NCBI GenBank assembly: GCA_014729025.1
Contig: WJKP01000017.1
Span: forward strand, 1 to 51,344
Reading direction: 5' to 3'
From: Candidatus Buchananbacteria bacterium
Lineage (GTDB): Bacteria; Patescibacteriota; Patescibacteriia; CAIXNZ01
Length of the DNA: 51,344 nt
Part shown: positions 2,010 through 51,344 of the stretch, piece by piece
Layout of the letters: every line of letters begins with the position of its first letter
Position numbering within the stretch: the first letter of the stretch is position 1
Position numbers and translations under genes: made by a program
Notes under the pieces: model-generated
What the model was told of the DNA's origin: nothing
Databases searched by the model: none
The model's input: the letters and a program-made list of their open reading frames with translations, nothing else

Positions 2010-2768
2010 CTAAAGTAATTCCTTAAAATTATTAATTAATATTTCCAAAATCAAGTTGCCATTCATTAAATTAATATTTTGAATTTGGCCGTATTTAGCT
2101 GTCACATTTAAAAAATTGTTTAAACTTTTTTCAGCAATAAACCCAAAAGAAATATTACCAATAAAATTGGGTAGAGTCAAATCACCTATTTTAAAATTAA
2201 CAATTTCCAGATCAGCTTTGCCGTCTTTAATAGTCGGCTTGATATTTAAAGTAATAATTAAATTAGACGGATCTTTGTTTTCAATAAAAACTTCCAAATT
2301 ATCCGGTAAAATAGCTATTTGCGCATATTCAATTTTTTCAGCTAAACTAGCTTTTTCTTTAATTTTATCCCTTAAAACTGCGCTTAAAACTTCTTCGGAT
2401 AAATCAAGCGAAACAGTTAACTCATTTATTTGTTGTTGCGCAACTAGTTCCTGGCTAACCGATTTTTCCAGTCGCGCCAAAATATCTTTATCAGCCTCAC
2501 TAACATTATCAGCTTCAACCAAACGGGCCGGTTCTGGTTCGTGATAAAAATTGGCTGTCAAAAACGGGACTTCTTTTAAACCACTTTTAGCTAAAACATA
2601 AGCGCCAATTAAACTAATGGCTAAAATAATAATTAAAAATAAAATCAAACAACCGGAACAGCCAAACATTTTTTTGTTTTGCTTTCTTTTTAAACCTTTT
2701 TTCATGCGGCTGATTTCCGCCTCTAATTCTTCTACTTTGGTACTTTTATCTTCTTCTTGTCTGCTCAT
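2010..2768 (-). CDS. single-pass membrane-anchored protein, unknown function
   Basis: 252-aa ORF; charged N-terminus, one TM (CSGCLILFLIIILAISLIGAYVL), soluble C-terminal domain. Confidence 0.5.
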   Translation of the reverse strand: MSRQEEDKSTKVEELEAEISRMKKGLKRKQNKKMFGCSGCLILFLIIILAISLIGAYVLAKSGLKEVPFLTANFYHEPEPARLVEADNVSEADKDILARLEKSVSQELVAQQQINELTVSLDLSEEVLSAVLRDKIKEKASLAEKIEYAQIAILPDNLEVFIENKDPSNLIITLNIKPTIKDGKADLEIVNFKIGDLTLPNFIGNISFGFIAEKSLNNFLNVTAKYGQIQNINLMNGNLILEILINNFKELL

Positions 2769-2778
2769 AAATAATAAA

Positions 2779-3834
2779 TTATTCTTCTAATCGCATTTCA
2801 ACTGATCTTTTTTTATCCAAAAAATCCTGAACAAAAACACTTAAAGCTGTAACCACTGGAATTGCCAAAATCACCCCTATTAGCCCGGCCAATTTCCCGC
2901 CAATCAATAAAGCTATAATACTGACTACAGGATTTAAGCCGACTGTTTTTTGCATTATCATTGGCACAAAAATATGATTTTCAAAAAATTGAATAACAAT
3001 ATATAAAATCAAAACCCAAAGCGCCATTAACGGTGACTGAAATAAAGTTAAAAAGACAGCAATAAAACCTGACAAAAAAGGGCCTAAATAAGGTATAAAT
3101 TCTAATAAACCGGCGATAATAGCCAAAATCAAAGCGTATTTAACCCCGGAAACAAGCAAAGCGAAATAAACCAAAAGAAAAATAATAAAACCTAAAATCA
3201 ATTGCCCTCTTAACCATAAGCCTAATTTTTGCTGGATCCGATTTACCAATTGGTACGCATAAGGTAATGATTGACTTGGCACCAATTGACGCAAAACTTT
3301 TTTTATGGCATTTTGCTCAACTAAAATATAAAAAGTTATTACCAAAATAATTATCAAAGAAACAATGCCGGCAAAAAAATTACCGACCCTGGCAAAAATT
3401 TCACCGGTTGAATCAGGAAATTGCAGTTTAAATGATTGGAAAAATGATTCCACACTTTTATCAATACCGTACTGGTTTAAAAAATGGCCGACATTGGAAA
3501 ATTCAATGGTCATTTTCTGCCAATAACGAGGGAAATTGGCTGATAACTGTTGCACTTGATCAATAATCGGTGGGATTAATAAAATAAAAATTAAAGCCAC
3601 TACTGCCACTAAAACCAAATAAACAATAATAACCGATAAAAATTTAGGGATTTTTTTGTTTCTTAACCAATCGACAATCGGTTCCAAAACTGAAACTAAA
3701 ATAATTACAAAAAACAAAATTGCTACAACATCCTGAATTAAATACAAAATCCATAACAAAAACAAAACTATTAAAATCTTAATAATCGAATTAGTGGAAA
3801 TTTCAATATTAATTTTTTTATTACTAATAGCCAT
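2779..3834 (-). CDS. AI-2E family transporter (PerM/UPF0118)
   Basis: 351-aa polytopic ORF with family-typical blocks LGLWLRGQLILG and LEFIPYLGPFLSG. Confidence 0.8.
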   Translation of the reverse strand: MAISNKKINIEISTNSIIKILIVLFLLWILYLIQDVVAILFFVIILVSVLEPIVDWLRNKKIPKFLSVIIVYLVLVAVVALIFILLIPPIIDQVQQLSANFPRYWQKMTIEFSNVGHFLNQYGIDKSVESFFQSFKLQFPDSTGEIFARVGNFFAGIVSLIIILVITFYILVEQNAIKKVLRQLVPSQSLPYAYQLVNRIQQKLGLWLRGQLILGFIIFLLVYFALLVSGVKYALILAIIAGLLEFIPYLGPFLSGFIAVFLTLFQSPLMALWVLILYIVIQFFENHIFVPMIMQKTVGLNPVVSIIALLIGGKLAGLIGVILAIPVVTALSVFVQDFLDKKRSVEMRLEE

Positions 3835-4624: not shown

Positions 4625-4973
4625 GGGGATGACAGGCGTCGATTGAAAGAACTTTTAAAATACTGCAAGTCGAGGCTGTATTTTGCCTCGTTAATCCAAA
4701 ATACAACATCAATAAGTGCAAAAAACTTATTTACCAAAGTAAAGAGTGCTTTTACTCCGAACTTTGCTTTTGCTGCAGTTTAATAAAAACAGCAGCCATC
4801 TCTGCCTTTGATGCCTGATAAAAGGTTTGGGGTGTCATATTTTCTCAGGTAAAGCTGATTTAGTCTGGTCTTAACCAAATCAGTCATACATTATTAAGAC
4901 CTTTTCATTTTTAAGCTTGTCGATGGTATTTTAAAAAACTTTTAAGACGCGGGTTCAATTCCCGCCATCTCCA
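4625..4973 (+). ncRNA. ssrA: tmRNA (SsrA), one-piece
   Basis: 5' GGGGATGACAGGCGTCGA; 3' GACGCGGGTTCAATTCCCGCCATCTCCA (T-arm plus acceptor pairing with the 5' end); internal tag frame GCA...TAATAA at 4718-4786; CCA not encoded. Confidence 0.85.
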
Positions 4974-5056
4974 CACTTCGCCTCAACTTCGTTGATGGCT
5001 CAGTGTCTCGCTGACACTTTGAGCGAAAGTACTGACGAACGACGTGAGGAAGTTGA
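4974..5056 (+). repeat. tRNA/tmRNA 3'-trailer element, copy 1 (after ssrA)
   Basis: Starts CACTTCG one base after the tmRNA discriminator A; shares blocks CTCAGTGTC, GCGAAAGT, CTGACGAACG, GTGAGGAAGTTGA with copies at 11183, 12289 and 51210. Confidence 0.7.
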
Positions 5057-5085
5057 ATTATTATTAAAAATTAACTTACAAAAAC

Positions 5086-10982: not shown

Positions 10983-11053
10983 ACAAGGATTTCAGTCATA
11001 GGCTGCCTGTCTGCCTGTGGCAGGATCCGCCTTTAGCGGAAATTCCTTTTTTT
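10983..11053 (+). ncRNA. candidate ~70-nt structured RNA or leader upstream of tRNA-Asp
   Basis: Closing stem AAGGATTTC/GAAATTCCTT, inner hairpins CTGCC..GGCAG and CCGC-cttta-GCGG, then T7. Confidence 0.3.
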
Positions 11054-11108: not shown

Positions 11109-11182
11109 GGGGGCGTAGCTCAGTTGGTTAGAGCGCTTGCCTGTCACGCAAGAGGTCGCGAGTTCGAGTCTCGTCGTCCCCG
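11109..11182 (+). tRNA. tRNA-Asp (GTC), CCA not encoded
   Basis: Acceptor GGGGGCG/CGTCCCC (one G-T pair), D-arm GCTCAGTTGGTTAGAGC, anticodon loop CTGTCAC, T-arm GCGAGTTCGAGTCTCGT, discriminator G. Confidence 0.9.
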
Positions 11183-11262
11183 CACTTCGGTCTTCACTTC
11201 GTTCAGACCTCAGTGTCTAAAGACCTTTACCGAAGTCGCTGACGAACGTAGTGAGGAAGTGA
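11183..11262 (+). repeat. tRNA 3'-trailer element, copy 2 (after tRNA-Asp)
   Basis: CACTTCGGTCTTCACTTCGTTCAGACCTCAGTGTCTAAAGACCTTTACCGAAGTCGCTGACGAACGTAGTGAGGAAGTGA; followed by terminator AAATAACCACC-tttc-GGTGGTTATTT. Confidence 0.75.
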
Positions 11263-11265
11263 CAA

Positions 11266-11295
11266 AAATAACCACCTTTCGGTGGTTATTTTATT
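11266..11295 (+). terminator. rho-independent terminator after tRNA-Asp plus trailer
   Basis: ATAACCACC-tttc-GGTGGTTAT followed by a T-rich run. Confidence 0.7.
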
Positions 11296-11410
11296 TTGTA
11301 TAATTTTTTCATTACATTTTCATTAAATCTATTTTTAAAAAAAATTAATTCTCAAATTAGTTTTTTTGATTAGGTCTACGAGACGGTTAGAACTTTAAGA
11401 AATAAAAAAA

Positions 11411-11435
11411 GACCCAGCGATGTTATCACTGGGTC
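11411..11435 (-). terminator. terminator hairpin of cassette 1
   Basis: GACCCAGCGAT-gtt-ATCACTGGGTC with a T-run on the minus strand; overlaps the stop codon. Confidence 0.6.
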
Positions 11436-11776
11436 ATATCCAATGCGTTTTTTATTATTGGTCTGTATTTTTCAGGGGTTTTAATCTTATAACCTATACT
11501 TTCCCATCCTCTAATATTTCCTTTCTCACATTCGCCTGCACCAATTGCAGTTGGCAAATCTGCAGGATTTTTCCCAAGAATACCTCTATGCCAAGCACTC
11601 CATAGTAAATCTTTATGTTCAAAAATTTCGAAAGAACCGACAAGAAGTAAATCATTCTTTTGTCCAATTTGCTCTTTGGGAAAAAATAAAAATTTACAGG
11701 CTTTTGTTTTATGACTTTGGGAATTATAATCTACAGCTTGTTTTGGTCTCTTACTTATAAATTTCACAATTATCAT
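11426..11776 (-). CDS. hypothetical protein (cassette 1)
   Basis: 116-aa ORF, perfect SD AAAGGAGGTG, own promoter; no family recognised. Confidence 0.6.
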   Translation of the reverse strand: MIIVKFISKRPKQAVDYNSQSHKTKACKFLFFPKEQIGQKNDLLLVGSFEIFEHKDLLWSAWHRGILGKNPADLPTAIGAGECEKGNIRGWESIGYKIKTPEKYRPIIKNALDMTQ

Positions 11777-11803
11777 CCTTTACACCTCCTTTTTTGATTT
11801 TAT

Positions 11804-11832
11804 ATATTATCATTTTTTTGCAAAAAAGTCAA
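11804..11832 (-). promoter_or_regulatory. promoter TTGACT-N17-TAATAT for cassette 1
   Basis: Minus-strand TTGACT (11827-11832) and TAATAT (11804-11809), 17-nt spacer. Confidence 0.55.
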
Positions 11833-11851
11833 GCGTTTTACATTAACAAAC

Positions 11852-11868
11852 AGTTCCAACATAGTCAA
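11852..11868 (-). repeat. 17-nt cassette box, copy 1 (TTGACTATGTTGGAACT in gene sense)
   Basis: Exact match to 12921-12937; 16/17 overlap with 12263-12278. Confidence 0.8.
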
Positions 11869-11931
11869 TAAGGCTCCGTGGGTATCAGAAAAACAAGGTA
11901 TTAACCTTGTTTTTCTATTTTATGGAAATTT

Positions 11932-12213
11932 CTATTTGTTAGTGGATACACAACTATATTCATTAAATTTTACTTGCTTCCAATTACCATTCTTAATAAA
12001 GCAGAATAATTTATTATTTATATTTTTATATATCAGTATAGTGGTACAAGTTCCTTTAATATCATAAACTCCTTCCATTGAAGACGCCTCACAATGCTCA
12101 AACTCTTCAGTAACATTATATGTTGGATTAAATTTTATATTGAGCCCAATAACAACAATTAAAAATACAATTATGATTAGGACTAAAAATACAATTTTAG
12201 AATTTTTTTTCAT
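11932..12213 (-). CDS. small Cys-containing exported/membrane-anchored protein (cassette 2)
   Basis: 93-aa ORF, N-terminal TM/signal (IVFLVLIIIVFLIVVIGL), 5 Cys in the mature part. Confidence 0.5.
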   Translation of the reverse strand: MKKNSKIVFLVLIIIVFLIVVIGLNIKFNPTYNVTEEFEHCEASSMEGVYDIKGTCTTILIYKNINNKLFCFIKNGNWKQVKFNEYSCVSTNK

Positions 12214-12262
12214 AAATATTTTTTAATAATCTATGTTCATATAATATCATAATTAACCAATT

Positions 12263-12278
12263 GTTCCAACATAGTCAA
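12263..12278 (-). repeat. cassette box, copy 2
   Basis: GTTCCAACATAGTCAA on plus strand, 3 nt from the duplicated tRNA-Asp 3' end. Confidence 0.8.
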
Positions 12279-12281
12279 CTA

Positions 12282-12368
12282 GTCCCCGCACTTCGGTCTT
12301 CACTTCGTTCAGACCTCAGTGTCTAAAGACCTTTACCGAAGTCGCTGACGAACATAGTGAGGAAGTGA
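12282..12368 (+). repeat. orphan duplicate of tRNA-Asp 3' end (7 nt) plus trailer element (copy 3)
   Basis: 87 nt matching 11176-11262 at all but one position (A at 12354 versus G at 11248). Confidence 0.9.
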
Positions 12369-12370
12369 TA

Positions 12371-12402
12371 CGAAACTAGAACTTTTTCAAGTTCTAGTTT
12401 TT
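12371..12402 (+). terminator. hairpin terminator after trailer copy 3
   Basis: AAACTAGAAC-ttttca-AGTTCTAGTTTTT. Confidence 0.55.
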
Positions 12403-12457
12403 GGTTTCAAATAAAAAGACCCTTTGATATTATCGCCGGGTCAGGGTTCTTCGTTCG

Positions 12458-12661
12458 TTATGTTTCTGACTTTGGAATGGCAGTAATAATCCCGCAAAAT
12501 CCTACGTAAAATAAGATTGAAGATACTGCTATCACATAGCCAATACCTGTAAACTTCGTATCAGGCATATAGCCATATAAAAGCAAAGAAAACATTCCAC
12601 CTAACATTGCTGCCCAAGGCAGAAAGAACAAGTAAGGTCCGAGCCATCGTAATTTTTTCAT
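12458..12661 (-). CDS. 67-aa two-TM small membrane protein (cassette 3, second gene)
   Basis: SD AAAGGAG; hydrophobic helices; related terminator hairpin GACCCTTTGAT-att-ATCGCCGGGTC at 12418-12442. Confidence 0.5.
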   Translation of the reverse strand: MKKLRWLGPYLFFLPWAAMLGGMFSLLLYGYMPDTKFTGIGYVIAVSSILFYVGFCGIITAIPKSET

Positions 12662-12674
12662 CTTTTTCTCCTTT

Positions 12675-12860
12675 TTAAGATATCTCTTTCTTAGTCTTCT
12701 CTTTTTTGGGTATGATTAGGGCTGCCAATCCCATAAGGACAGCTACCAAGATAAGGAAAAGACCAAGGTCTTCTTTTCTGGGGATTGATAGGATTGCCAT
12801 TCCAATAGCCGAAATAAAGCCAGCGATTACAACAAGTATCAAAGCGATATTTTTCTTCAT
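12675..12860 (-). CDS. 61-aa two-TM small membrane protein (cassette 3, first gene)
   Basis: Perfect SD GAAAGGAGGAA; MKKNIALILVVIAGFISAIGMAILSI... Confidence 0.55.
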   Translation of the reverse strand: MKKNIALILVVIAGFISAIGMAILSIPRKEDLGLFLILVAVLMGLAALIIPKKEKTKKEIS

Positions 12861-12886
12861 TTCGAATTCCTCCTTTCTGATAATTT

Positions 12887-12915
12887 AACTTATCAAAAAA
12901 AGATTAAAATGTCAA
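12887..12915 (-). promoter_or_regulatory. promoter TTGACA-N17-TAAGTT for cassette 3
   Basis: Minus-strand TTGACA (12910-12915) and TAAGTT (12887-12892). Confidence 0.45.
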
Positions 12916-12920
12916 CAAAT

Positions 12921-12937
12921 AGTTCCAACATAGTCAA
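12921..12937 (-). repeat. 17-nt cassette box, copy 3
   Basis: AGTTCCAACATAGTCAA on plus strand, identical to 11852-11868. Confidence 0.8.
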
Positions 12938-13003
12938 TTAGACGCCACATTAAATAAAAAAAGAACCAATAGTATGGGTTCTTTTTTTTATTTTATTAAA
13001 TTA

Positions 13004-19769: not shown

Positions 19770-19984
19770 ACAAAACTAAAGTTTTATAATCCAAATTTCT
19801 CTGACCACCCCAGGACTATAAAGCTTTAGCTTTATTTAATCCCCCAGGACTGTAAAACTTTAGTTTTATAATCCGAGGTTGCTGGGAAAAACTGAAGTCT
19901 TATAATCCTAATTACACCACACATCCCAGGATTGTAAAGCTTTAGCTTTACCCAATATCCATAAAATGTAAAACTTTAGTTTTA
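19770..19984. repeat. array of 6 REP-like hairpins downstream of RAYT
   Basis: Units TAAAAC-TTTA-GTTTTA or TAAAGC-TTTA-GCTTTA, usually preceded by CCAGGAYTG and followed by TAATCC; the last hairpin abuts the RAYT stop. Confidence 0.85.
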
Positions 19985-19985
19985 C

Positions 19986-20486
19986 CTAAAAAAAATCCAT
20001 TAATTTTTCGGTACCATATTCTTTATAATAATCCTTAAAACTACTAAATTCATAATCTTTTAATTCTTCATGATTTTTAACTAAACCATGCTTTATTGGA
20101 TTACTATGTATATAATTAAAATGCTTATAAAAATCATCTTCGTCTCTAATACAATAATCCCAATAATTCCACCAAATTTGTCTGCCAGGCATATTTTCAA
20201 ATTTATTCAAATCATAAGAAGCACCGCCATTAATAGATCTTATGATTGCTGGCAACTTATTGCCATTTTTTAATAAAAAAAGCAGATGATAATGATTCAT
20301 CAAAACACTCCAAGCAAATAATTTTAAATTGAATTTTTCAACAGTTAAAATTATTTTATTTGAAAGTATTCTTATTTTTTCTTCATTATTAAAAAATCTC
20401 TTAGCTTTTATTGTTCTGGCAGTAATAAAATAAATCTGATCATCTAAATAAACATGACATGGGATATGTTTAGGAAATCTTTTCAT
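19986..20486 (-). CDS. REP-associated tyrosine transposase-like protein (IS200/Y1 HUH superfamily)
   Basis: HUH motif MNHYHLLF; catalytic-Tyr block FNYIHSNPIKHGLV. Confidence 0.8.
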   Translation of the reverse strand: MKRFPKHIPCHVYLDDQIYFITARTIKAKRFFNNEEKIRILSNKIILTVEKFNLKLFAWSVLMNHYHLLFLLKNGNKLPAIIRSINGGASYDLNKFENMPGRQIWWNYWDYCIRDEDDFYKHFNYIHSNPIKHGLVKNHEELKDYEFSSFKDYYKEYGTEKLMDFF

Positions 20487-20492
20487 AAATTT

Positions 20493-20632
20493 TGTAAAGC
20501 TTCAGCTTAACATAAGTCATTACTCAACTCAGACAAAACTAAAGTTTTATAATCCAAATTTCTCTGACCACCCCAGGAATATAAAAGCTTTAGCTTTATT
20601 TAATCCCCAGGACTGTAAAACTTTAGTTTTAT
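20493..20632. repeat. array of 4 REP-like hairpins upstream of RAYT
   Basis: Same hairpin units as 19770-19984. Confidence 0.8.
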
Positions 20633-23525: not shown

Positions 23526-26303
23526 TTAATGAAACTGATACTCTCCCCTTGTTCCCCCTTCAAAACTATTAACTTTAATACCACCATCAAAAATTCCTCT
23601 AATTCTATATTTACTTGAATTTGATGTGCCAATTACGTTTCCTGCAGCATCCTGGGCGTTTGCAACGGTAATAGTAACACTCGCACCGTTTATCAAAGCT
23701 CCCGAACTCCAAGTTAATCTATAAATATTACCGGATACAAGCGCAACATTATTTGGATTATCGGCGACAGTACCTTGGCCTGAACTAGAAATTGTATAAT
23801 TAGCAGCTGTAGTAACACCGCTACCCATAGAGTCATCAAAAGTTACATCAATAGTAGTAAGCGATTGAATCTCAACTGAACTGACAGCTGGCGCAGTCGT
23901 ATCAATATTAATATCACTAGTATCAGCTATATTATTAGGCGAAGCTGGTACGGTTGAAAATGATTGAGTCCCGCCGGCCGTACTTGTAACACTTTCTGAA
24001 GAAATGGAAGATACGGTAAGGTCTGTAGCATCTTCTCCACTACCAGTAGATCCTACAGAATAAGTACCAGAAACGGTTTTTCCGGATACTGTGCTTAAAG
24101 TGACTGAGACACCATTACTCAAAACTGCTGTCAAAGTACTCGTACCGTCTAAATTTAAATCATAAGTAGCTGTAATATTTATATTTGAACCTGGACCATA
24201 AATTCCATCAGTAGTGGTTGAAGTAAAACTTTGCAAAATCGGGGGGAGAATAATTACTACCGAGCCATCACCACCAGACGCACCAGCTGTTCCAGTAGCG
24301 CCTCCCGTACCACCTACACCGACACTTGAAATATAATCACTATCTGTATTATTACCAGGTGTTGTGCCGCTACCGCTTGTCGTAGTATCACCATAACCAG
24401 AACCACCGCCACCACCGGCTCCAGAAGTATTGGAAGCATTAGCCGCACCGCCACCGCCGCCGCCGTAATAACCAGCGCCAGCACCTCCACCGCCAGAACG
24501 ACCTGTCCCATCATTACCACCGCCGCCACGACCGCCTCCATTAGTACCGCCTGGGATTCTACTACCAGTTAAATGCCCACCGTCTCCTCCTGCTAAAGAA
24601 GAACCGGCCGTGGGTGAACCATCACCACTGCCTGCGCTGCCTCCAGCCGATTGAGTTCCGCCGCTACCACCGGTCACAGAACCGCCACCGCCACTACCGC
24701 TTCCTCCACTGGTACCACCACCAACACCCCCCGCACCGCCAGCCGGAGCACCGGCTTGATTATCACCGCCACCACCACCGCCGCCACCAGCAGCTACAAT
24801 AAGCGATGTAGTATTTCTAAAAACACCAGAATAACCACCGCCGCCGCCGCCAGAAGACACTCCACTAACCACTGCACCGCCTGAACCACCACCACCGACA
24901 CGGATTGTTAAATTTTCCCCTGGTGTAACACTAAGCGTAGAATTTGTATAACCAGCACCACCACCATCACCACCAGACTGAGCAGAACCACCTCCGCCGC
25001 CACCACCACCAGCTCCCCATGATTTAACATTAATCTGATAAACACCTACCGGAACTTGCCAGGTAGTCCCGCTTGTGGCAGCGCCAAAAACAATTTGTCC
25101 GTCTTGTGACTGCTCAGGACCTAAATTATAAAAAGTTGAAGGTGAATTTTGATTATTATATGAAGTTGTAATCCAACCGCTACTTCTATTGACCGAACTT
25201 ACACGGACTTCATCGACAAGCCCCTCCCACCAACGGCCATCATAATCAACATATTGTCTGCCAATACGAAAATCATCACCAGTATCGGATACTGCATGAG
25301 TGCTCGTATCTGTTTGTAACACGCCATCAATATATAAATAACTAGTACCACCATCCCTTACGCCGACAATATAATGCCAGTCAGTATCATTATAAACAGA
25401 ATCACTTAAAATATAATCAGTTGAGCCACCACTGGCAATAAAAAAACGAAAATAATTACCACCATCTTTTGAGATATTATATCCATTATAATTACCGCCA
25501 GCATATTCAAGTTTACCAGCTATGCCCATATAAGTATCAGTTACATCTGGTTTTGCCCATCCCGCAATAGTCATATCCCCTGTTAATTGTAGACTGCTGG
25601 GATTTTGACAATCAACTTCATCATTATTTCCGTCAAAATCAAAACTACCATCAATATTACCTGTTACCTGATCACTGGTGTTCATGCCAGAAGTAGTACC
25701 ATCATTGGCATTTGCGGTGCTATCTTTTATATCATCGGTTCCTCCGTCTATATCCGTTTCTTGAAGATGCTGTACTAACTCATAATCACTATTCCAAACA
25801 CCGGTCATATTTTGCTGGTCTGTCGCTCCGCTATTACCATAATACATATAAAATACTGTATTAGCGGTATTAGAAAGGCTAGGCACTCTTACCCAAGCGA
25901 CTAGCTCACCGGTAGAGCTGGTATAATTTTCAATCTCATGATCAAGCTTGGTTGTACCATCAGACGAAGTAAACAATATATCATAACCGTCACTTCGGGC
26001 ATTAGTAGCCAAATTAAGATCGGAATTCAAATTTATCAATACCGGAAAATTAGTTTGGGAACTTGTTGAAACCTGTGTGTAATCAACGGTTATTGATTTT
26101 CGATAATCCCAGCTGGAATTATACCAGCTTGCAGCCTGTGCTTCAGGAATATTAATAAATATATTACTAAAAAAAACACCTGTAGAAGTTAAAATAAAAA
26201 TAAAAATAAACCAAATAAGCAAACCTTTACGCAAAGAACCAAGCCGCAGGCCTATATAATTTTTTAATTTTAAATTTAATTTATTTATACCCGTTTTTCT
26301 CAT
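23526..26303 (-). CDS. large secreted protein: DUF2341-like, LamG-like, glycine-rich (ALK-type Gly_rich-like) and Ig-like regions
   Basis: 925 aa. SWDYRKSITV...FPVLINL...DGYDILFTS...LDHEIE (DUF2341-like); LamG-like FDFDGNNDEVDC...WHYIVGV...LYIDG...DEVRVS; WQVPVGVYQINVKSWGAGGGGGG... plus about 250 aa of Gly runs. Confidence 0.8.
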   Translation of the reverse strand: MRKTGINKLNLKLKNYIGLRLGSLRKGLLIWFIFIFILTSTGVFFSNIFINIPEAQAASWYNSSWDYRKSITVDYTQVSTSSQTNFPVLINLNSDLNLATNARSDGYDILFTSSDGTTKLDHEIENYTSSTGELVAWVRVPSLSNTANTVFYMYYGNSGATDQQNMTGVWNSDYELVQHLQETDIDGGTDDIKDSTANANDGTTSGMNTSDQVTGNIDGSFDFDGNNDEVDCQNPSSLQLTGDMTIAGWAKPDVTDTYMGIAGKLEYAGGNYNGYNISKDGGNYFRFFIASGGSTDYILSDSVYNDTDWHYIVGVRDGGTSYLYIDGVLQTDTSTHAVSDTGDDFRIGRQYVDYDGRWWEGLVDEVRVSSVNRSSGWITTSYNNQNSPSTFYNLGPEQSQDGQIVFGAATSGTTWQVPVGVYQINVKSWGAGGGGGGGGSAQSGGDGGGAGYTNSTLSVTPGENLTIRVGGGGSGGAVVSGVSSGGGGGGYSGVFRNTTSLIVAAGGGGGGGGDNQAGAPAGGAGGVGGGTSGGSGSGGGGSVTGGSGGTQSAGGSAGSGDGSPTAGSSLAGGDGGHLTGSRIPGGTNGGGRGGGGNDGTGRSGGGGAGAGYYGGGGGGAANASNTSGAGGGGGSGYGDTTTSGSGTTPGNNTDSDYISSVGVGGTGGATGTAGASGGDGSVVIILPPILQSFTSTTTDGIYGPGSNINITATYDLNLDGTSTLTAVLSNGVSVTLSTVSGKTVSGTYSVGSTGSGEDATDLTVSSISSESVTSTAGGTQSFSTVPASPNNIADTSDINIDTTAPAVSSVEIQSLTTIDVTFDDSMGSGVTTAANYTISSSGQGTVADNPNNVALVSGNIYRLTWSSGALINGASVTITVANAQDAAGNVIGTSNSSKYRIRGIFDGGIKVNSFEGGTRGEYQFH

Positions 26304-26334: not shown

Positions 26335-29300
26335 TTAATTATAGCTAAAAACGGCCTTACCAATATCTACTGTAGCTGTATCATCAACAGTACCCTTACA
26401 AACAATAACAAAAGGATTTCCCGCTGTCCAAGTCCCCCCGCCAATATTGGTACTGGTTATATTTATTGTAGACTCACTGGTTGAAGCGCTATCAGCTGTA
26501 GTATAAGTTGAACTCCCGGCGGTATCATAAACCGTACAGGCTACTTTAGAAGTATTGGTATCTGCAGAACTAGTTTTATAAGTTATTGTAATCGCACTAG
26601 TTGACCAAGAGCTAAAATCTGAAGGTAACAGTTTTTGATAAACTATATCCAAATCTTGATCTGCTGCATTACCATAAATATGATTATATTGTTCTTGGTC
26701 GGTATAATCGTATAATCTCCAGGAGTCAACATTATTACTGCCCCCGTCTGCTTCATGAATTGCTTCAGCCGAATTGGCCATAAAGTTTTGTGTTCCACTT
26801 GCCCCTGATGATATACAATCTGTCCAAGAACCGTTTTCATAACATCTAAATTTATTTAAATTATCATTATAATATACACCGCCATTAGTACCGACCGGAT
26901 CGCCAGAATCTGATTTAATATCAAAAACTAATAAATCCGGGTTGCTTGAACCAGCGCCACCATCACCAATTTGTACATTTGCTGTTGTTCCGGTCCCAGC
27001 CGCCTGCAAATTAATACTGCCAGAACCTGAAGAAACAGTTAATGCTCCATTAGATGTTAAATCAGTAGAAGTTCCCAGTGAAACAGTACCAGAACCAGCC
27101 TGTAAAGTCAGGTCTCCACTACTGGTTGCAATAGATGAAGCGCTTAAACCTGAAAGTGATAAGCTGCCTGAAGTCGCTGTCATATTCAAAGCACCGGTTG
27201 TTAAAGTAAAACCGTTTTGAGCTGTCAATGTACCGGCTGAAGTAATCGTCCCTGTGCCGGTTGTATTAATATTGCCGCTGGTATTAATAACACCGGCATT
27301 AGTAATATACCAATCACCATCAGTGGTATTAATATCATTACCGCTACCTGTATTATTTATTTCTAAAGCTGCCGGATTATTAGTAGTATCATTTTGATTA
27401 ATAATCAAGCTGCTATTATTTGAGCCGTCAGGCGTAGTAAAGGTTATTGGCACTCCGCCTGAAGTAGTAATAGTCGCTCCGCCATTATAAGCTGTCTGCA
27501 AACTGACTGTACCGCCAGTATCACAATCTTTCCAAGAACCGCTTTCATAACAACGAAATTTATTATCATTGGAATTATAATACATAGCACCATCAGCACC
27601 TGTAGGATCCCCTGAATCAGTTTTAGTATCAAGCACTAAGGTTGTGCCGGTAGTATCCGACGTACCAATGGTCACATTACCTCCAAGCGGCAACAAATTA
27701 ACATTACCGCTACCTGACTGAATACTGGTAGTTGAAGTAGTATTGGTTGAACCTAAAGTCAAAATTTTGTCAGCTGCGCCAGTGCCAATATTAATAGTTT
27801 CAGCGCTACTATCATCACCGATCGCTAAATTGCCGGTCGTACCAGAATTAAGAGTCAAAGTAGTTGCATTAGCTGAAGTTATAGTCAAAGCACCGCTAGC
27901 TGTCAAATCCGTTGAAGTACCCAAACTAACAGTGCCAGAACCGGCCTGTAAAGTTAAATTATTACTTGGGGTTAGACTGACATCGCCAGTATTATTAACC
28001 GTAAAATCACCTGTTCCCGTAGTATTTAAATTAAAATTATTCAAACCAATTGTTGTAGTAGCATCCAAAGACAGGCTATCGGCAAAATTAACAAAATCCA
28101 GGCCAGTAGTAATATTATTCAAATTCTGCCAGGTTGGGAGACCCGAAGAAACAGCTAAAACCAAATTATCACTACCGCCAATGCTTAATCTGCTCAAAGT
28201 ATTGGCAGCTGAAGCGTACAATAAATCACCAGCACTCCAAATAGTTTGCGCTGTCCCGCCATATTGTTCTGTAATAACATTACCTTGCCAAGTACCGCCA
28301 GATAAAACACCGGCAGTGCTTATATCTAAAGCTGTTGAATCCACTGCAAAAGTACCATTATTATCACCTAAACTTATTGCTCCTGAACCAGCGATTGTAA
28401 ATCCTCCTGAACTTAAATTAAAAGCTATATCAGTTGTACCGGCTGTTGTAATTGTTGCCCCGTTATCATAAGCGTCTTGCAAGGTTGTTGCTGCACTCGT
28501 ATTATCAGACTGACATGACCACTGACCTGTGCCAGTTGAATATTTTAGTATTTCATTATCGCCGCAATCTATTAATGATAAACCATTACCATCTACTTCC
28601 AAACCTTTATTGGCTTGTAAAGCTAAGGTAATATCATCTGCATTAACCGTAATACCATTACCGGCTCCTACTGCTACAGTCGGGGTAGCGCCTTCTGAAG
28701 CCACGTCTCCTGTTAAACCACCTCCAGCCGTTAAGCTAGCTATATAATTGCCCGTAGTATCTGTAGTTAAAGCCACACTATCCGCTTGAATTGTTGTTGC
28801 CCCGTCCGTTGCTATATCAACATCTCCTGTCATATCTACTCCGGTTGCCACATTACTTCCGTTGCCTACAAATATATATCCGCCAGTTAAAGCATTGCTC
28901 ATATCATTTGACACATCCTGATCCCAACCGCTTACATCCAGCCAGCTTGGGGCTGCTGCTCCGTTTGACTGCAGTAAATAACCGCTGGTTCCGGCTGCCA
29001 ATGAATCATAAGTGGTTGCGCCTGTTGAATATAATATTTCACCTGCTCCGGCTGCTGTTACATCTCCGCCCAAACCGCCGTATGTCACTTCAATTGCATT
29101 GCCGTTCCAAGTTGCTCCTGTAATTGTTCCTCCTGTTGTACTAAATGTCCCGTCTGTTAAGGTTGTAGCTGTTAAAGCTCCACTGGCATTCACGCTCCAA
29201 TCATTACTGGTTACGATGAAATCAGATGTGCCGGTATTAATTGTAAAAGCACTATTACTGGTAGTTAAAGTATTATCAGCATCCGTAGCATAAACCGCTT

Positions 29301-32300
29301 CAAAATCCGAACTGCCTCCGGTAGCATCAGCCGAGCAAGCCCAGTAATCACTAGTTTCATCCCATTTTAATAATTCATTATCCGCACAACCTTGCAACAT
29401 AGACAATTGACCACTGATAAATTCCAGGCCGGAAGCTGAATTAGTCGTTGTACTTAAAGCATCCGCTGGAGTGGCTAATAAATCCAAACTCAAACTATGT
29501 GCTATATTTTCTCCGGTTGTTGCCCCTGTTGAAGCTATACCATTGCCAGCGGTTATATCTGAAACATAATCTCCCGTAGTATCCGTGGCCAAAGCTACGC
29601 TATCAGCTGCAATTGTCGGATTTGGATATGTACCGGTTAAATCTCCTCCGGCGCTTGTTGCGCTGCTGATTAATGTGCCTGTTTCTGCCGGTAAAGTTAA
29701 AGTGTAATCCGTACTAAGAGCTGGCGCTGTTAATTGGATTTCATTTGCATCGCTTACTGTTCCTTCAAAGTATAAATTATTACCCGCACCATCTTCAGTA
29801 AAAACAGCGCCTGATAAACCATCGCCAACTTGAGCAATATCACCGCCGCCACCTGGCGATGCCCAGGTTAAATTACCACTACCGTCTGTTTGTAAAAATT
29901 CGCCGGAACCGCCATCATTAATCGGCAAAGTTAAAGTATAATCTGCTCCAATCGCCGGACTGATTAATGTTATTTTATTATTTGATGCGTCATATAATTC
30001 CAAACTACCCGTAGTTGTGTTACTACCGGCTGTTAATGTACCGCCAGTTGCCGTTACATTAGCAAAACTTGGACTGTCGCCTGTGCCCAAACCTAAACTG
30101 GTTCTGGCTGTATTGCCACTTTCAGCTACCCAATTGGCCCCGTCGCCAACAATAAAATTACCGTCAGTCAAGGCCAAACCGGATATATCATCCAAAACGG
30201 CATCCCAAGCCTGAACTGTTGAACCTATATCATTATTTAATAACACTGTACCAGTAGCGTCAGGCAAAGTTATGGTATTGGCCCCGGTTGGATCAGTGAT
30301 TGCCAAAGTTGTTGTGTTGCCGTCATTTGTTGCGCCTTCAAATATTAAAGCGTTAGATCCTAATACTTCAGCATTAAATGTTAAACTATCAGTTGCGTCA
30401 CTACCAATAGTTGTATTAGCATTAGCAGTCAAATCGCCTGAAACTGTTAAAGCTCCAGCGGCATCTACGCTCCAGTCATTGCTTGTGACTATAAAATCCG
30501 ATGTGCCGGTATTAATTGTAAAAGCTCCATCACTGGTTATTAAGGTATTATCAGCATCCGTAGCATAAACCGCTTCAAAATCCGAACTGCCTGCGGCACT
30601 TTGCCAGCTTGTTCCGTCATACCATTTTAAAGTATTACCATCACCTGAATCCATAAACATATCACCGGTTGTTGGCGTGCCCGGCAAAGCTGCTGTCGCT
30701 AAATTAAGCCCGCCGGTTGCATATAACTGCAATTTTGTACCTTCCACCGGATGAGCAAAGCCCAATATATCTGGCGCGCCTGAAGTAAAAGTTAAAGCAA
30801 AATCATCATCAGTTTCATTATTACCAACCCTTAATGAATTACCTGTCACATACACATTGGCCCATCTTGCTCCGTTAGTGCCCAGATCATAAGAATTATT
30901 GGCTGACGGCACTATATCTCCGGAAGTAGTTACTGTACCGCTGCCTAAAAATGTGAAACTTGGATTAGTGGTTGTGTTACCAAAAGATATATTTTCAGAG
31001 CCATCAGTTGTATTGATATTTATATAATTATTGGTTCCTTCCTGCATATCAAGAGCGTCAGCAGTATTATCGGTTAATGAAGAAGAAATAGCACCGGCCC
31101 AGCTTAAATTACCGCTACCGTCTGTCTGTAAAAATTCATCGGGATTACCATCAGTAGCAGGCAAAATCCAAGCGATATTAGTGCCAATATTATCAGGCGC
31201 TTTAAAACCAACATAATTTGTACCATTAGCTGCCAATTCCACAAATTCCAAATTACCGGTATCGCCTGAATTAGTGCCGTACGGTTCAATTCTTAAAGCA
31301 TCAGCAGTAGATGGCTTTATATCCAATTTAGCACCGGGAGAAATCATACCAATACCCACATCTCCGCCGCTGGTAAGGCGCATTTTTTCATCACTGGCCG
31401 TAGTTCCGCCTGTAGAAAATTTAATATCAGTTCCCGGGATACCGGAAGCTATAGCCAAACCATCACCAAAACTAACCAAAAAAGACTCATTTGCTCCTGC
31501 CAAACTATAAGCTGGATTATTAAAAGTAGAAGAAGTTATCCCTACTGCCATGGAATAACGCAATGCTGGCGCAACAGCTGGATCATAACTATCAGAAGCT
31601 GCCGCCAAAACAGAAGTAGCATTATTAAGATTACTATTATTACGAACACTAAAAATTAAATTATCGTCTAAATTGCCCTGAAGATTAAGGATATCAGGAT
31701 TGCTTCCTGAATCAATTAAAACTTTTGCTTTAGGTGAACCCAAATTATCCGTACCAATTGCCACATTACCATCGGCGTCAATTAAAAACGGGGTAGTATC
31801 ACCCAGGCCATCTTGATCATCAACCCGAAAACTATCACCATTGCCAAGATTTTTTACATGCAAAGGCATAGCAGTTGAACCAGCTAATGTAGAAGCCTTT
31901 AAAATAGCTGAATCACCGGTCGCAGTTGAAGCCGTATTTTCTGAAAAAGTAAAGCCGGCCTGATCAGCGGTGGTTAATGACCAATTCCAAACCTGGGCAT
32001 TATCACCATTATTTATAGTATTAGCACCAGTGGCTGCCAAGATTGACGATAAAGGCAAATTAGTACCAACTGATGTCCAGCTTAAAGCACCGCTACCGTC
32101 AGTTGAAAGCACCTCCCCTGGTGAACCGTCAGCATTAGGTAAAGTCCAAGTTACATCACCAGCCAGAGCATCAGGAGATTTAAAAGCAAGATAATCAGAA
32201 CCATTGGCAGCTAATTCAACAAAACGTAATTCAGTTGTATCACCGGCATTAGCACCATAAGGATTTAAATTAAGACCGCTTTGCGGTTCAAAATTAATTG

Positions 32301-33774
32301 CCCCGACACCGTCAATATTAAAATCACCGGAACTTAAAGTAAAAGCTATTGGCGTACTGCCTGCCGTAGTAACAGTGGAACCGGTATCATAAGATGACTG
32401 TAAGCCGGTAATACAATTAACCCAATCTCCATTCACAAAACAACGAAATGTATTATTAGAAATATTATAATACACGGAACCCTCAGTAGCTCCAGCCGGA
32501 TCAGGATCGTTTTTTTGTCCTAATCTTAATAAGGATCCATCACCAACTTTAATATCACCACTTACCTCTAAAGCATAATTAGGCGCATTATTACCAATAC
32601 CCAAACGTTTATTAGTATTATCCCAAAATAAATTATTAAAATCTTCTATAACCTCACCATTAAAACCGCCAAACGCTATTCCTCCTTGATTAAGAGATCC
32701 ATGATGAGCATCATCAATATCAACCAAAATACGACCGGTACCAGCAAGCGCTTCTGTAATATAACCAATAGCTACTTCCAGATTAGGCTGCTGTGGTCTT
32801 GTGGTTGTAAACTCACCGGCTGTGCTTGGCGATAAATAAAGCTTATCGCCTGATGAATATATAGCTGTATTCAAATTATGAACTAGGCCAAAATTAGTCA
32901 CATAACCATAACTGCCATTTGGAATATCACCAGTGGTCAGCCCAAGTACCTTAGAAGTGTTTAAATTATCAGCTTGAGCCAAATCAATAGTGGGGGCGCT
33001 ACCATTAACTCCAGTAATATAAACTGCCTTACCATTGCCTATTAATCCGCCTGAATTATTATAAACCTTAATTAAAGATTCTTCACCAATATTAACTATA
33101 ACTGCTGAATCTTCATTATAATAAGAAAGTGTCTTTTCAGTATTATCATAAAAAACCCTGCCTTCCTGATAAACCGGATTAGCAGTAGTATTTAAATCAA
33201 TATAATCAGCCACATCCAAAGAACCATTAATTGTTGTGTTAACACCGGCCTGGCCGATTGCAACTGAAGAAGCCGTACCAGTCCCCAAATTAAGATTGGC
33301 CGCGGCATCAATATTTAAATCACCAGTGGTAGTTGACCAGGTTGAGGTCGCATCAGCTGTAATTGTTAAAACTGCGCCACTGGTTGACAAATTCAAACCG
33401 CCACCGCCTGCCGTATCATTGATTGTCAAAGCATTGCCAGCCAAATCTATGCCAGTAGCCGCATCCAAAATCATTGAATCAGCAAAATTGGAAAAATCCA
33501 AACTGCTGCCAACAACTGAAATACAATCTACCCAGGTACCATTTTCATAACAACGGAATTTATCGGTTGAAGAATTATAAATTATTCTGCCATTGGCACC
33601 GGTTGCTGGATCTGAGCCAAAAGAACCGATTTGCAAATAACCTGTAGTAGTAATATCCTGGCCAATCGTGGTTGCCGCCCAAACATTAGAAGCACTAAAA
33701 AACAAAAAAAAGATCAAAACCATGACCAGTGCTTTAAATATTTTTATAATATTTTTACCTCTAAAAATCTGCAT
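26335..33774 (-). CDS. giant secreted repeat protein (tail-fibre/adhesin-like)
   Basis: 2479-aa uninterrupted ORF; signal peptide ending NVWA; Thr/Gly/Ser/Asn-rich; recurring F(R)C(Y/F)xxGxWxxC and LP..DG..(E/G)(F/V)L.TDGSG.L(S/T)W modules. Confidence 0.85.
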   Translation of the reverse strand: MQIFRGKNIIKIFKALVMVLIFFLFFSASNVWAATTIGQDITTTGYLQIGSFGSDPATGANGRIIYNSSTDKFRCYENGTWVDCISVVGSSLDFSNFADSMILDAATGIDLAGNALTINDTAGGGGLNLSTSGAVLTITADATSTWSTTTGDLNIDAAANLNLGTGTASSVAIGQAGVNTTINGSLDVADYIDLNTTANPVYQEGRVFYDNTEKTLSYYNEDSAVIVNIGEESLIKVYNNSGGLIGNGKAVYITGVNGSAPTIDLAQADNLNTSKVLGLTTGDIPNGSYGYVTNFGLVHNLNTAIYSSGDKLYLSPSTAGEFTTTRPQQPNLEVAIGYITEALAGTGRILVDIDDAHHGSLNQGGIAFGGFNGEVIEDFNNLFWDNTNKRLGIGNNAPNYALEVSGDIKVGDGSLLRLGQKNDPDPAGATEGSVYYNISNNTFRCFVNGDWVNCITGLQSSYDTGSTVTTAGSTPIAFTLSSGDFNIDGVGAINFEPQSGLNLNPYGANAGDTTELRFVELAANGSDYLAFKSPDALAGDVTWTLPNADGSPGEVLSTDGSGALSWTSVGTNLPLSSILAATGANTINNGDNAQVWNWSLTTADQAGFTFSENTASTATGDSAILKASTLAGSTAMPLHVKNLGNGDSFRVDDQDGLGDTTPFLIDADGNVAIGTDNLGSPKAKVLIDSGSNPDILNLQGNLDDNLIFSVRNNSNLNNATSVLAAASDSYDPAVAPALRYSMAVGITSSTFNNPAYSLAGANESFLVSFGDGLAIASGIPGTDIKFSTGGTTASDEKMRLTSGGDVGIGMISPGAKLDIKPSTADALRIEPYGTNSGDTGNLEFVELAANGTNYVGFKAPDNIGTNIAWILPATDGNPDEFLQTDGSGNLSWAGAISSSLTDNTADALDMQEGTNNYININTTDGSENISFGNTTTNPSFTFLGSGTVTTSGDIVPSANNSYDLGTNGARWANVYVTGNSLRVGNNETDDDFALTFTSGAPDILGFAHPVEGTKLQLYATGGLNLATAALPGTPTTGDMFMDSGDGNTLKWYDGTSWQSAAGSSDFEAVYATDADNTLITSDGAFTINTGTSDFIVTSNDWSVDAAGALTVSGDLTANANTTIGSDATDSLTFNAEVLGSNALIFEGATNDGNTTTLAITDPTGANTITLPDATGTVLLNNDIGSTVQAWDAVLDDISGLALTDGNFIVGDGANWVAESGNTARTSLGLGTGDSPSFANVTATGGTLTAGSNTTTGSLELYDASNNKITLISPAIGADYTLTLPINDGGSGEFLQTDGSGNLTWASPGGGGDIAQVGDGLSGAVFTEDGAGNNLYFEGTVSDANEIQLTAPALSTDYTLTLPAETGTLISSATSAGGDLTGTYPNPTIAADSVALATDTTGDYVSDITAGNGIASTGATTGENIAHSLSLDLLATPADALSTTTNSASGLEFISGQLSMLQGCADNELLKWDETSDYWACSADATGGSSDFEAVYATDADNTLTTSNSAFTINTGTSDFIVTSNDWSVNASGALTATTLTDGTFSTTGGTITGATWNGNAIEVTYGGLGGDVTAAGAGEILYSTGATTYDSLAAGTSGYLLQSNGAAAPSWLDVSGWDQDVSNDMSNALTGGYIFVGNGSNVATGVDMTGDVDIATDGATTIQADSVALTTDTTGNYIASLTAGGGLTGDVASEGATPTVAVGAGNGITVNADDITLALQANKGLEVDGNGLSLIDCGDNEILKYSTGTGQWSCQSDNTSAATTLQDAYDNGATITTAGTTDIAFNLSSGGFTIAGSGAISLGDNNGTFAVDSTALDISTAGVLSGGTWQGNVITEQYGGTAQTIWSAGDLLYASAANTLSRLSIGGSDNLVLAVSSGLPTWQNLNNITTGLDFVNFADSLSLDATTTIGLNNFNLNTTGTGDFTVNNTGDVSLTPSNNLTLQAGSGTVSLGTSTDLTASGALTITSANATTLTLNSGTTGNLAIGDDSSAETINIGTGAADKILTLGSTNTTSTTSIQSGSGNVNLLPLGGNVTIGTSDTTGTTLVLDTKTDSGDPTGADGAMYYNSNDNKFRCYESGSWKDCDTGGTVSLQTAYNGGATITTSGGVPITFTTPDGSNNSSLIINQNDTTNNPAALEINNTGSGNDINTTDGDWYITNAGVINTSGNINTTGTGTITSAGTLTAQNGFTLTTGALNMTATSGSLSLSGLSASSIATSSGDLTLQAGSGTVSLGTSTDLTSNGALTVSSGSGSINLQAAGTGTTANVQIGDGGAGSSNPDLLVFDIKSDSGDPVGTNGGVYYNDNLNKFRCYENGSWTDCISSGASGTQNFMANSAEAIHEADGGSNNVDSWRLYDYTDQEQYNHIYGNAADQDLDIVYQKLLPSDFSSWSTSAITITYKTSSADTNTSKVACTVYDTAGSSTYTTADSASTSESTINITSTNIGGGTWTAGNPFVIVCKGTVDDTATVDIGKAVFSYN

Positions 33775-50991: not shown

Positions 50992-51080
50992 GCTGAAGTG
51001 GCGGAATTGGCATACGCGCATGCTTGAGGTGCATGTTCCCAAATTAGGGATTGAGGGTTCGAGTCCCTCCTTCAGCACCA
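50992..51080 (+). tRNA. tRNA-Leu (GAG), class II, CCA encoded
   Basis: Acceptor GCTGAAG/CTTCAGC, anticodon stem-loop CATGC-TTGAGGT-GCATG, long variable arm, T-arm GAGGGTTCGAGTCCCTC, then ACCA. Confidence 0.85.
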
Positions 51081-51134
51081 AGCAGGTTTCGGCTTTTGGC
51101 AGACAGGCAAAGCCTGTCCTTGGCACATAAAAAA

Positions 51135-51294: not shown

Positions 51295-51300
51295 TAAATA

Positions 51301-51328: not shown

Positions 51329-51344
51329 TCTTAAAATTATGACC

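Follow-up and report, generated by a model that had tools for sequence, protein, structure and literature searches.

A palindromic repeat at the 3' ends of tRNA and tmRNA genes in Candidatus Buchananbacteria and its association with small GIY-YIG nuclease genes

The DNA analysed was a stretch of 51,344 nucleotides from Candidatus Buchananbacteria (contig WJKP01000017.1 of assembly GCA_014729025.1, positions 1 to 51,344), referred to as the window, and the element under study is a structured sequence of about 80 nt at the 3' end of its tRNA-Asp gene. An initial annotation, made from the letters alone, had described this element as a trailer of tRNA-Asp, tRNA-Val and transfer-messenger RNA (tmRNA) with four full copies and one partial copy. 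Copies were sought over the 51 kb with a covariance model (R1) run with its filters off. Exactly four full copies were obtained at 78-90 bits, spanning 4973-5057, 11182-11264, 12288-12370 and 51209-51296, with the next best match at 12 bits, and all five copies lay within one base of the places annotated initially. The conserved blocks were seen 3-4 times in the window against 0-0.16 expected by chance. The window copies are mutually only 64-73% identical.

The tmRNA gene ssrA (4625-4974, plus strand; ARAGORN, and Rfam RF00023 at 128.5 bits) is followed directly 3' of C74 by copy 1 (4975-5056, plus strand, 80.8 bits), a solo copy between ssrA and infC, the latter identified with Pfam. tRNA-Asp(GTC) (11109-11183, plus strand; ARAGORN and Rfam) is followed by copy 2, the element studied here (11183-11263, plus strand, 81.2 bits), whose outer stem opens with C74 of the tRNA (11183). 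Copy 3 (12289-12369, plus strand, 77.6 bits) is an orphan; before it, inside one of the D15 repeats described below, stands GTCCCCG, which equals the final 7 nt of tRNA-Asp. It belongs to repeat family D9, with 95% identity over 96 nt in the repeat search. tRNA-Leu(GAG) (50992-51080; ARAGORN and Rfam) carries no element. tRNA-Val(TAC) (51135-51210, plus strand; ARAGORN and Rfam) is followed by copy 4 (51210-51295, plus strand, 90 bits) and then by a truncated second tandem copy (51301-51332, plus strand; AACTTCGTTAAGCCCTCAGTGTCTTTGAC) without the 5' CACTTCG and the 3' half. CCA is not encoded by ssrA, tRNA-Asp or tRNA-Val. At all three genes the ARAGORN and Rfam gene ends bore out the annotated start of the element, with CACTTCG beginning one base past the discriminator and its first C being gene position 74.

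No terminator-like site was called between gene and element at ssrA or tRNA-Asp (the tRNA-Val locus lay outside the scan), and the element is therefore probably cotranscribed with the upstream gene as a trailer. Two terminators had been proposed after the copies: a terminator-like hairpin was called directly 3' of copy 2 (11265-11292, plus strand), whereas the one proposed at 12371-12402 was not called. Coding potential was considered and rejected; the copies contain stops and differ by indels, and database open reading frames (ORFs) that cross the element are artefacts. In a check against Rfam 15 only tRNA and tmRNA reached the gathering score and no family matched the element, which agrees with its description as an undescribed family. 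With E values up to 10 allowed, the Rfam matches were sub-threshold, well under their gathering scores, and included no ribozyme family.

Structure was tested on an alignment of 13 sequences (A3) with two nested models. Both models fitted, with 87.5% and 89.4% of cells paired compared with 24-38% when the partners were slid; 7-8 pairs had changes on both sides, and the observed covariation score was reached in 0 of 500 shuffles. The 5' part, module A (11183-11215, plus strand), reads CACT-TCG-(GTCTTCAC TTC GTTCAGAC)-CTC-AGTG. Its interior is a 9-bp hairpin with a TTC loop, its outer 4-bp stem takes in C74, and helix 1 was 87.5% paired with 5 double-change pairs. Next come hairpin 2 (TCT-AA-AGA), a linker and CCGAAGT (11216-11236, plus strand). 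CCGAAGT can pair with the 5' ACTTCGG as an alternative outer stem (columns 3-9 with 56-62, 90% paired; columns 9:56 are CG in 4 sequences and GC in 4). Column 9 covaries with column 28 and also with column 55/56, and the outer stem and hairpin 1 therefore compete for the same bases. The 3' part, module B (11234-11263, plus strand), is AGTCGCT-GAC-GAACGTAGTGA-GGA-AGTGAC in copy 2 and AGTCACT-GAC-GAACGNAGTGA-GGA-AGTGACT across copies, an inverted module-A-like hairpin with a conserved loop, in which GAGGAAGTGA resembles a Shine-Dalgarno sequence.

Compensatory sets were found in hairpin 1 (GGTCT/AGACC and GCCCT/AGGGC) and as TTAAC/GTTAA, TGAAC/GTTCA and TCAAC/GTTGA. With loci in relatives denoted by L numbers, CACT/AGTG is replaced by CCCT/AGGG in L285 and L286, and GTCAC/GTGAC by GGCAC/GTGCC in copy L125a. 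L121 has CATT/AATG; this pair and GGCAC/GTGCC are compensatory changes in helix 3, that of module B. The outer stem ACTTCGS:SCGAAGT and hairpins 1 and 2, as first drawn from the window copies, hold on the alignment. Two further points drawn at that time needed correction. The 3' tail GAAGTGA does not pair with TCACTTC as a general rule; in most copies the tail closes a 3' hairpin through local pairing of AGTCACT and AGTGACT. The matched insertion reported for the tmRNA copy is lost in the orthologous copy L205. A leader-trailer pairing was also rejected; the 8-nt match upstream of tRNA-Asp is probably due to chance, because it was not seen at other loci.

Module B is the mirror form of module A (CACT-TCG...CTC-AGTG against CACT-GAC...GGA-AGTG). 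Either module can be written on one strand as stem-GA(G/C)-inner-(C/G)GA-stem, and on that strand the helix can be lengthened by tandem G.A pairs. The G.A-favourable strand is the top strand for module B and the bottom strand, antisense to the tRNA, for module A, which on the minus strand reads stem-GAG...CGA-stem. Because the modules mirror each other on opposite strands, the element is, as judged from its sequence, an inverted dimer of one hairpin type. Its ends are the terminal inverted repeats CACTTC...GAAGTG.

An ~80-nt sequence of nested helices that starts exactly at a processing site could be a self-cleaving ribozyme, HDV-like or hatchet-like, which cuts its own 5' end and so creates the tRNA 3' end. 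The helices are nested hairpins without the double pseudoknot of HDV, however, the CUGACGA present has no hammerhead stem II, and the Rfam search found no ribozyme family even at E values up to 10. With the presence/absence pattern and fast divergence described below, a ribozyme is scarcely credible.

Relatives were retrieved through DNA patterns and neighbour-protein look-ups. Related Patescibacteria contigs contained 13 further copies of the element, lying after tmRNA and after nine different tRNA species. Scans with DNA patterns yielded L121 (tRNA-Val(GAC) with the element) and L122 (tRNA-Leu, then tRNA-Val(TAC) with the element). Homologs of a small GIY-YIG protein led to L125 (tRNA-Tyr, two copies and a GIY-YIG gene), to elements after tRNA-Lys (L285), tRNA-Ala (L287) and tRNA-Ile (L288 and L289), and to L286, where one element lies on tRNA-Leu(GAG) and tRNA-Val has two copies and then a GIY-YIG gene. 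Neighbour-gene look-ups yielded the orthologous ssrA copy in L205 and the orthologous tRNA-Asp copy in L290. L205 and L206, from metagenome-assembled genomes (MAGs) of study SRP141376, are close to the window genome, with SmpB 93% and 81% identical to that of the window. A first genome-wide pattern was discarded as too short (~120 mostly chance matches); it exposed the widespread loop motif described below. No element copy was found among the viral contigs searched.

Occupancy varies between relatives. The ssrA genes of the window and L205 carry the element, and that of L206 does not. tRNA-Leu(GAG) lacks it in the window and has it in L286. The tRNA-Asp site was seen in three states: just the element in L290, the element together with a 1.7-kb island that contains a second copy in the window, and different modules with a GIY-YIG gene in L292. 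Copy similarity does not track tRNA identity: the tRNA-Ala copy of L287 and the tRNA-Val copy of L121 are 93% identical, the tRNA-Val copy of L122 and the tRNA-Ile copy of L288 are 91% identical, and the window ssrA copy is closer to the tRNA-Lys copy of L285 (83%) than to its own ortholog (79%). Orthologous copies diverge quickly. Between the window and L205 the ssrA-linked element is 78.6% identical, compared with 95.5% for tmRNA, 92.5% for infC and 62-65% for spacers, and between the window and L290 the tRNA-Asp element is 83% identical (module B alone 67%) beside a tRNA identical at 100%. Tandem, truncated and orphan copies all occur, and the second tandem copies are 5'-truncated at one common point (L125b, L286b and window 51301). 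Partial tRNA duplications flank some cassettes, with the tRNA 5' half repeated in L125 and L288, and the last 17-18 nt of the tRNA repeated after the cassette in L150 and L154. In the more distant Parcubacteria loci L207 and L208, other module-like hairpins lie directly after ssrA in differing orders (GCTCC-TATC-GGAGC-TTCGGGGTGTAAAC and GGTACTCC-GTAGCTTCAGCGAA-GGAGTACC).

These comparisons bear on the suggestion, made in the initial annotation, that the element is a determinant for RNase Z or CCA addition, or a conserved rider small RNA (sRNA), that tRNA or tmRNA maturation requires. All gene-linked copies do begin one base past the discriminator, the carrier tRNA and tmRNA genes have no encoded CCA, and the element has a G+C content of 45-53% compared with 23-38% for the weak background matches of R1 in the window. 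A required signal, however, would hardly be absent from ssrA of L206, or from the window tRNA-Leu yet present on that of L286. In the loci sampled, such a trailer is missing from most CPR (candidate phyla radiation) tRNAs without CCA. Beside the fully conserved tRNA-Asp of L290 module B is decaying, tandem and truncated copies exist, and module A has its G.A-favourable fold on the strand antisense to the tRNA. The comparative data have thus already weakened this explanation, and little likelihood is left to it. The reported correlation with absence of CCA holds in the window as a consequence of the element taking the place of the bases after C74; in L286, tRNA-Leu(GAG) carries the element.

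A small nuclease gene accompanies many copies. At eight relative loci a GIY-YIG gene of ~80 aa begins just downstream of the element, and L121 and L122, found by DNA pattern alone, both have a GIY-YIG ORF directly downstream. In loci fetched through GIY-YIG homologs the order tRNA-element-GIY-YIG was found after Lys, Val, Ala, Ile and Tyr tRNAs. The ORF is intact between conserved genes in L122, L125 and L285-L288 and is cut short, as a pseudogene, in L121. The proteins have 80-92 aa, a single PF01541 domain and are COG2827/UPF0213-like. Two database gene calls are longer (P0002, 103 aa; P0005, 122 aa), with spurious N-terminal extensions, because the calls start inside the element; a GTG-start ORF in L125 (1038-1382) reads through the element in the same way. 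In a sample across phyla, 21 of 85 small GIY-YIG genes lay 20-170 nt downstream of a same-strand tRNA, mostly in CPR MAGs. In this Patescibacteria lineage the element stands at the exact 3' end of tRNA and tmRNA genes and also forms the 5' flank of GIY-YIG cassettes.

The window ends in ATGACC (51339-51344, plus strand), the probable start of a small GIY-YIG gene cut by the window end. The terminal sequence CTTAAAATTATGACC resembles the GIY-YIG start regions CTTTAAAATTTATGACC of L125 and CTTATAATTTTATGACC of L121, and on the strength of this resemblance the tRNA-Val copy is very probably followed by a GIY-YIG gene beyond the window end. The partial copy at 51301-51332 is of the GIY-YIG-proximal subtype, matching L121, L125b, L286a and L287, and the syntenic locus L286 has the order Leu-Val-element-element-GIY-YIG.

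Other ORFs and rearrangements were seen close to the tRNA genes of these loci. L125 has a second GIY-YIG ORF (634-876, within 507-883) between a duplicate of the tRNA-Tyr 5' half and the intact tRNA-Tyr, and the duplicated half bears a 70-nt insert in the anticodon loop. In L122 an ORF with LAGLIDADG-type homing endonuclease motifs, recognised by eye, adjoins tRNA-Leu (2658-3305, minus strand).

Variable occupancy, similarity blind to tRNA identity, fast divergence of orthologs, rearranged copies and the GIY-YIG link together point to mobile or repeat DNA rather than a fixed tRNA-processing signal. With a rough probability of 0.6, we read the element as a palindromic repeat resembling REPINs (doublets of repetitive extragenic palindromic (REP) sequences) or MITEs (miniature transposable elements with inverted repeats), partnered with free-standing GIY-YIG cassettes that target tRNA ends. 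The name of trailer RNA was right as to position and structure and is probably wrong as to function; of the three functions guessed at initially, a target for tRNA-integrating elements came closest. The GIY-YIG nuclease would make breaks at tRNA gene ends or close to them, and the cassette, or its hairpin flank without the ORF, would be copied into the broken site during repair; copies in tandem, truncated copies and partly duplicated tRNAs would be left behind. The solo copies, among them the ones after ssrA and tRNA-Asp, would be non-autonomous derivatives. From its position, the element would probably be transcribed with the tRNA and then removed by 3' processing. In cassette-linked copies GAGGAGGTGAT or GAGGAAGTGA lies 7-20 nt ahead of the GIY-YIG ATG, half buried in the module B stem, and module B would probably both supply and partly hide the ribosome-binding site of the nuclease mRNA, the Shine-Dalgarno-like GAGGA(A/G)GTGA.

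Several points weigh against a mobile repeat of this kind. The role of the nuclease, the cleavage and the mobility are deduced rather than directly observed. Neither a clean junction between empty and filled sites nor a clean target-site duplication could be made out, ssrA included. A protein of ~80 aa is the catalytic domain only, with no separate DNA-binding domain for targeting tRNA ends, and the GIY-YIG gene of the window is deduced from 6 nt and upstream similarity. Half of the family loci came through GIY-YIG homologs and form a biased sample, and matches to the module motif near GIY-YIG genes (see below) are clustered and hence not independent. The orders Leu-Val-Phe-GIY-Gly and Pro-GIY-Gly recur in distinct CPR lineages, which could reflect old vertical inheritance and a host function. 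On the tRNA (plus) strand G:U pairs exceed A:C pairs by 11 to 4, a weak signal that, with the Shine-Dalgarno-like sequence in module B, is weakly compatible with a role at the RNA level.

Such a role has a form of its own, in which the element is a cis-acting RNA in the tRNA 3' trailer, serving as a structured leader by which translation or stability of the downstream GIY-YIG mRNA is controlled, or as a boundary for processing between a tRNA and the following transcript, with solo copies as relics. This accords with the covarying helices and the G:U excess, with an orientation that is always that of the tRNA, with the lack of a called terminator-like site between gene and element at ssrA and tRNA-Asp, and with the half-buried Shine-Dalgarno-like sequence. 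The outer module stems of other CPR loci share bases with the mature 3' and 5' termini of tRNAs, and an excised spacer or mRNA would have paired ends, CACTTCG...CGAAGTG. It accords poorly with solo copies that have no ORF to regulate, with the TC/CT pyrimidine mismatches of module A on the transcribed strand where tandem G.A pairs stand on the opposite one, with the Bacteroidota arrays of modules in both orientations and away from tRNAs, and with the fast divergence of orthologous copies. We regard a cis-acting RNA as unlikely, though worth keeping in view.

The region after copy 2 was compared with L290, where tRNA-Asp is followed by one element, a terminator and then directly by DUF1003. The window has instead an island of ~1.7 kb (11264-12950), absent from L290, with small ORFs, copy 3 and three 37-nt D15 repeats (GTTCCAACATAGTCAAY.AG.C.CC; 11842-11878, 12252-12288 and 12911-12947) located by the repeat search. 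The island ORFs of 116, 93, 67 and 61 aa are on the minus strand and had no significant family match. On that strand D15 forms a TTGACT-17/18-TAAT promoter pattern before the 116-, 93- and 61+67-aa ORFs. The middle D15 copy terminates in the last 7 nt of tRNA-Asp, and D15 may be a degenerate tRNA-Asp 3' end; a D15-like sequence lies 3' of the GIY-YIG gene in L292 (3420-3445). About 1 kb of the island lies between direct repeats made up of the element and 7 nt of tRNA-Asp, as it would between the attachment sites of an integrase-driven island family targeting tRNA genes, and both the lack of the island in L290 and the duplicated tRNA 3' ends of L150 and L154 would fit such integration. The chance of this is nevertheless slim: among the 39 window ORFs scanned with Pfam there was no integrase, recombinase or transposase, nor an integrase or recombinase in the island, most copies flank only an 80-aa nuclease gene, and tandem 5'-truncated copies are unlike attachment sites.

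The architecture of module A was also found in other CPR lineages and in Bacteroidota. CPR spacers contain (CA)CTTCG-hairpin-CTCAG(T/G)G(T/C)AA(A/G)C, often two or three times over. At about 10 of these other CPR loci the GIY-YIG ORF lies between inverted module-A copies that extend to both neighbouring tRNA termini, with the mirror form GTTTACACTGAG-hairpin-CGAAGTG placed after the stop codon and running up to the 5' end of the following tRNA. Cassettes are accompanied by duplicated tRNA fragments in L125, L150, L154 and L288. In our own comparison of motif starts with tRNA ends, the final 1-3 tRNA nt formed part of the 4-bp basal stem at 13 of 13 tRNA-adjacent sites, the stems at those CPR sites being CCAT/ATGG, CACC/GGTG, CACT/AGTG and CCCT/AGGG. 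In Bacteroidota, GIY-YIG ORFs lie within arrays of [N4]TCGACAGGCTC[N4']TGACA.

A strict module motif gave 188 matches compared with 20 in shuffled sequence. Its density was 4.6/kb in non-coding DNA within 300 nt of a GIY-YIG ORF against 0.47/kb further out, and 25 of 58 loci had at least one match near the ORF, against 12 of 58 further out. A strand-asymmetry test on motifs with one mismatch was rejected as too noisy (70 matches against 31 in shuffled sequence, with many identical copies). The module B loop TGACGAACGNAGTGAGGA recurs widely in hairpins whose stems vary. As the 18-mer TGACGAACG(A/C)AGTGAGGA, the loop of module B is conserved in hairpins whose stems are unrelated, in Bacteroidales, Spirochaetes, Actinomycetota, Chloroflexota, Myxococcota and archaeal MAGs (loci L008-L120), and the MAG nzgw171 has at least 8 copies of it inside a longer repeat. 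When neighbouring genes were compared, no protein family was common to the loci of this generic loop motif.

A tentative proposal, which we hold as possible rather than probable, is that small stand-alone GIY-YIG nucleases (COG2827/UPF0213-like, ~80-100 aa) act as cognate enzymes for a hairpin-repeat superfamily of very wide distribution. This superfamily, defined by stem-GA(G/C)-inner-(C/G)GA-stem, may include the common repeats GTCAYYCTGAGCG..CGAAGRRT and TGTCACCCTGAGCCTGTCGAAGGG, which occur in Bacteroidota and in further phyla. By analogy, the pairing may be a partnership like that of REPINs with REP-associated tyrosine transposases (RAYTs), built on a different nuclease fold. The CPR basal stem formed with the last tRNA bases could be a base-paired guide that sets insertion at tRNA ends. 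If true, the orphan hairpin repeats that make up a large class in bacteria would have a named partner enzyme, uncharacterised small GIY-YIG proteins would gain a role, and the duplication and cassette scars at tRNA ends of the tiny genomes of candidate phyla would be explained. For annotation, such trailers should not be called new sRNAs, nor should ORFs be read through them.

The element was compared with known systems. Like REP/REPIN-RAYT systems, it consists of short intergenic hairpin repeats with variable stems, conserved flank or loop bases and compensatory stem changes, and it has inverted dimers, clusters flanking a small nuclease gene and non-autonomous solo copies. It differs in having no GTAG tag, related modules having TGTCA or GTTTAC instead, in flanking a GIY-YIG (PF01541) gene rather than a Y1 HUH transposase, and in insertion tied to tRNA and tmRNA ends. 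REP/REPIN families number tens to hundreds of copies per genome; the 51 kb available here contains 4 full copies. In the ends of IS200/IS605 elements and their MITE-like derivatives there are likewise subterminal hairpins and a stem by the hairpin that is complementary to the flanking target, here the last 1-3 tRNA nt, but neither TnpA nor TnpB is present here, and no sign of single-strand transposition was obtained. tRNA 3' trailer sRNAs, such as 3'ETS-leuZ, are single-locus and conserved with their operon; the element shares with them its place in a transcribed tRNA trailer and differs in being multi-copy, polymorphic and palindromic.

CGTC-tagged REPs are hairpin repeats of Bacteroidetes, Chlorobi, Spirochaetes and others for which no dedicated transposase was identified (Di Nocera et al. 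2013, PMC3733652). Related motifs here start with GTCA beside the stem. CGTC-tagged REPs have 4-5 nt loops, the CGTC tag and a CCA tail (PMC3733652), whereas the modules here have conserved inner parts of 5-20 nt bracketed by GAG/CGA or GAC/GGA. The T4 protein SegB is a GIY-YIG homing endonuclease encoded inside a tRNA cluster (PMC2330249; PMC13096335). The present loci share with GIY-YIG endonucleases of T4-like phages a gene between tRNA genes, variable presence in relatives and nearby duplications, and differ from them in that the proteins here have ~80 aa, are chromosomal and are bracketed by hairpin repeats. SegB has ~220 aa and a DNA-binding domain. Because the RAYT gene, the GTAG tag and the size and DNA-binding domain of SegB are absent, the element is a variant of the closest known systems (REP/REPIN-RAYT, CGTC-tagged REP and SegB) rather than an established member of them. 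No description of CPR tRNA-end repeats or of GIY-YIG-linked hairpin repeats was found in the literature, of which coverage was incomplete, and earlier work is possible.

Further repeats and duplications were observed near tRNA genes and elsewhere in the window. In L122 (2340-2520, minus strand), L286 (1120-1260) and L290 (3440-3570, minus strand) the leader of tRNA-Val or tRNA-Asp is duplicated together with the first 13 nt of the tRNA, and the upstream copy is broken after GTAGCTC by a G+C-rich hairpin (CCCGC...GCGGG), seemingly an insertion scar of a second type, situated in the D-arm. G+C-rich hairpins (CTGCCTGTCTGCC / GGCAGACAGGCAAAGCCTGTCC) also occur in the window upstream of tRNA-Asp (10995-11040) and in the gap between tRNA-Leu and tRNA-Val (51095-51125), and similar sequences lie near tRNAs in L288 and L150. 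A 2479-aa ORF (26335-33774) that lay outside the Pfam scan and contains the internal DNA repeat families D2, D3, D5, D8, D11 and D13 adjoins the gene of a 925-aa protein with LamG and DUF2341 (23526-26303, minus strand); both products may be large surface proteins. Three 100-nt repeats of short palindromes (AAAACTAAAGTTTT, TAAAGCTTTAGCTTTA) at 19770-19869, 19886-19985 and 20533-20632 flank a 166-aa ORF (19986-20486) without a Pfam match.

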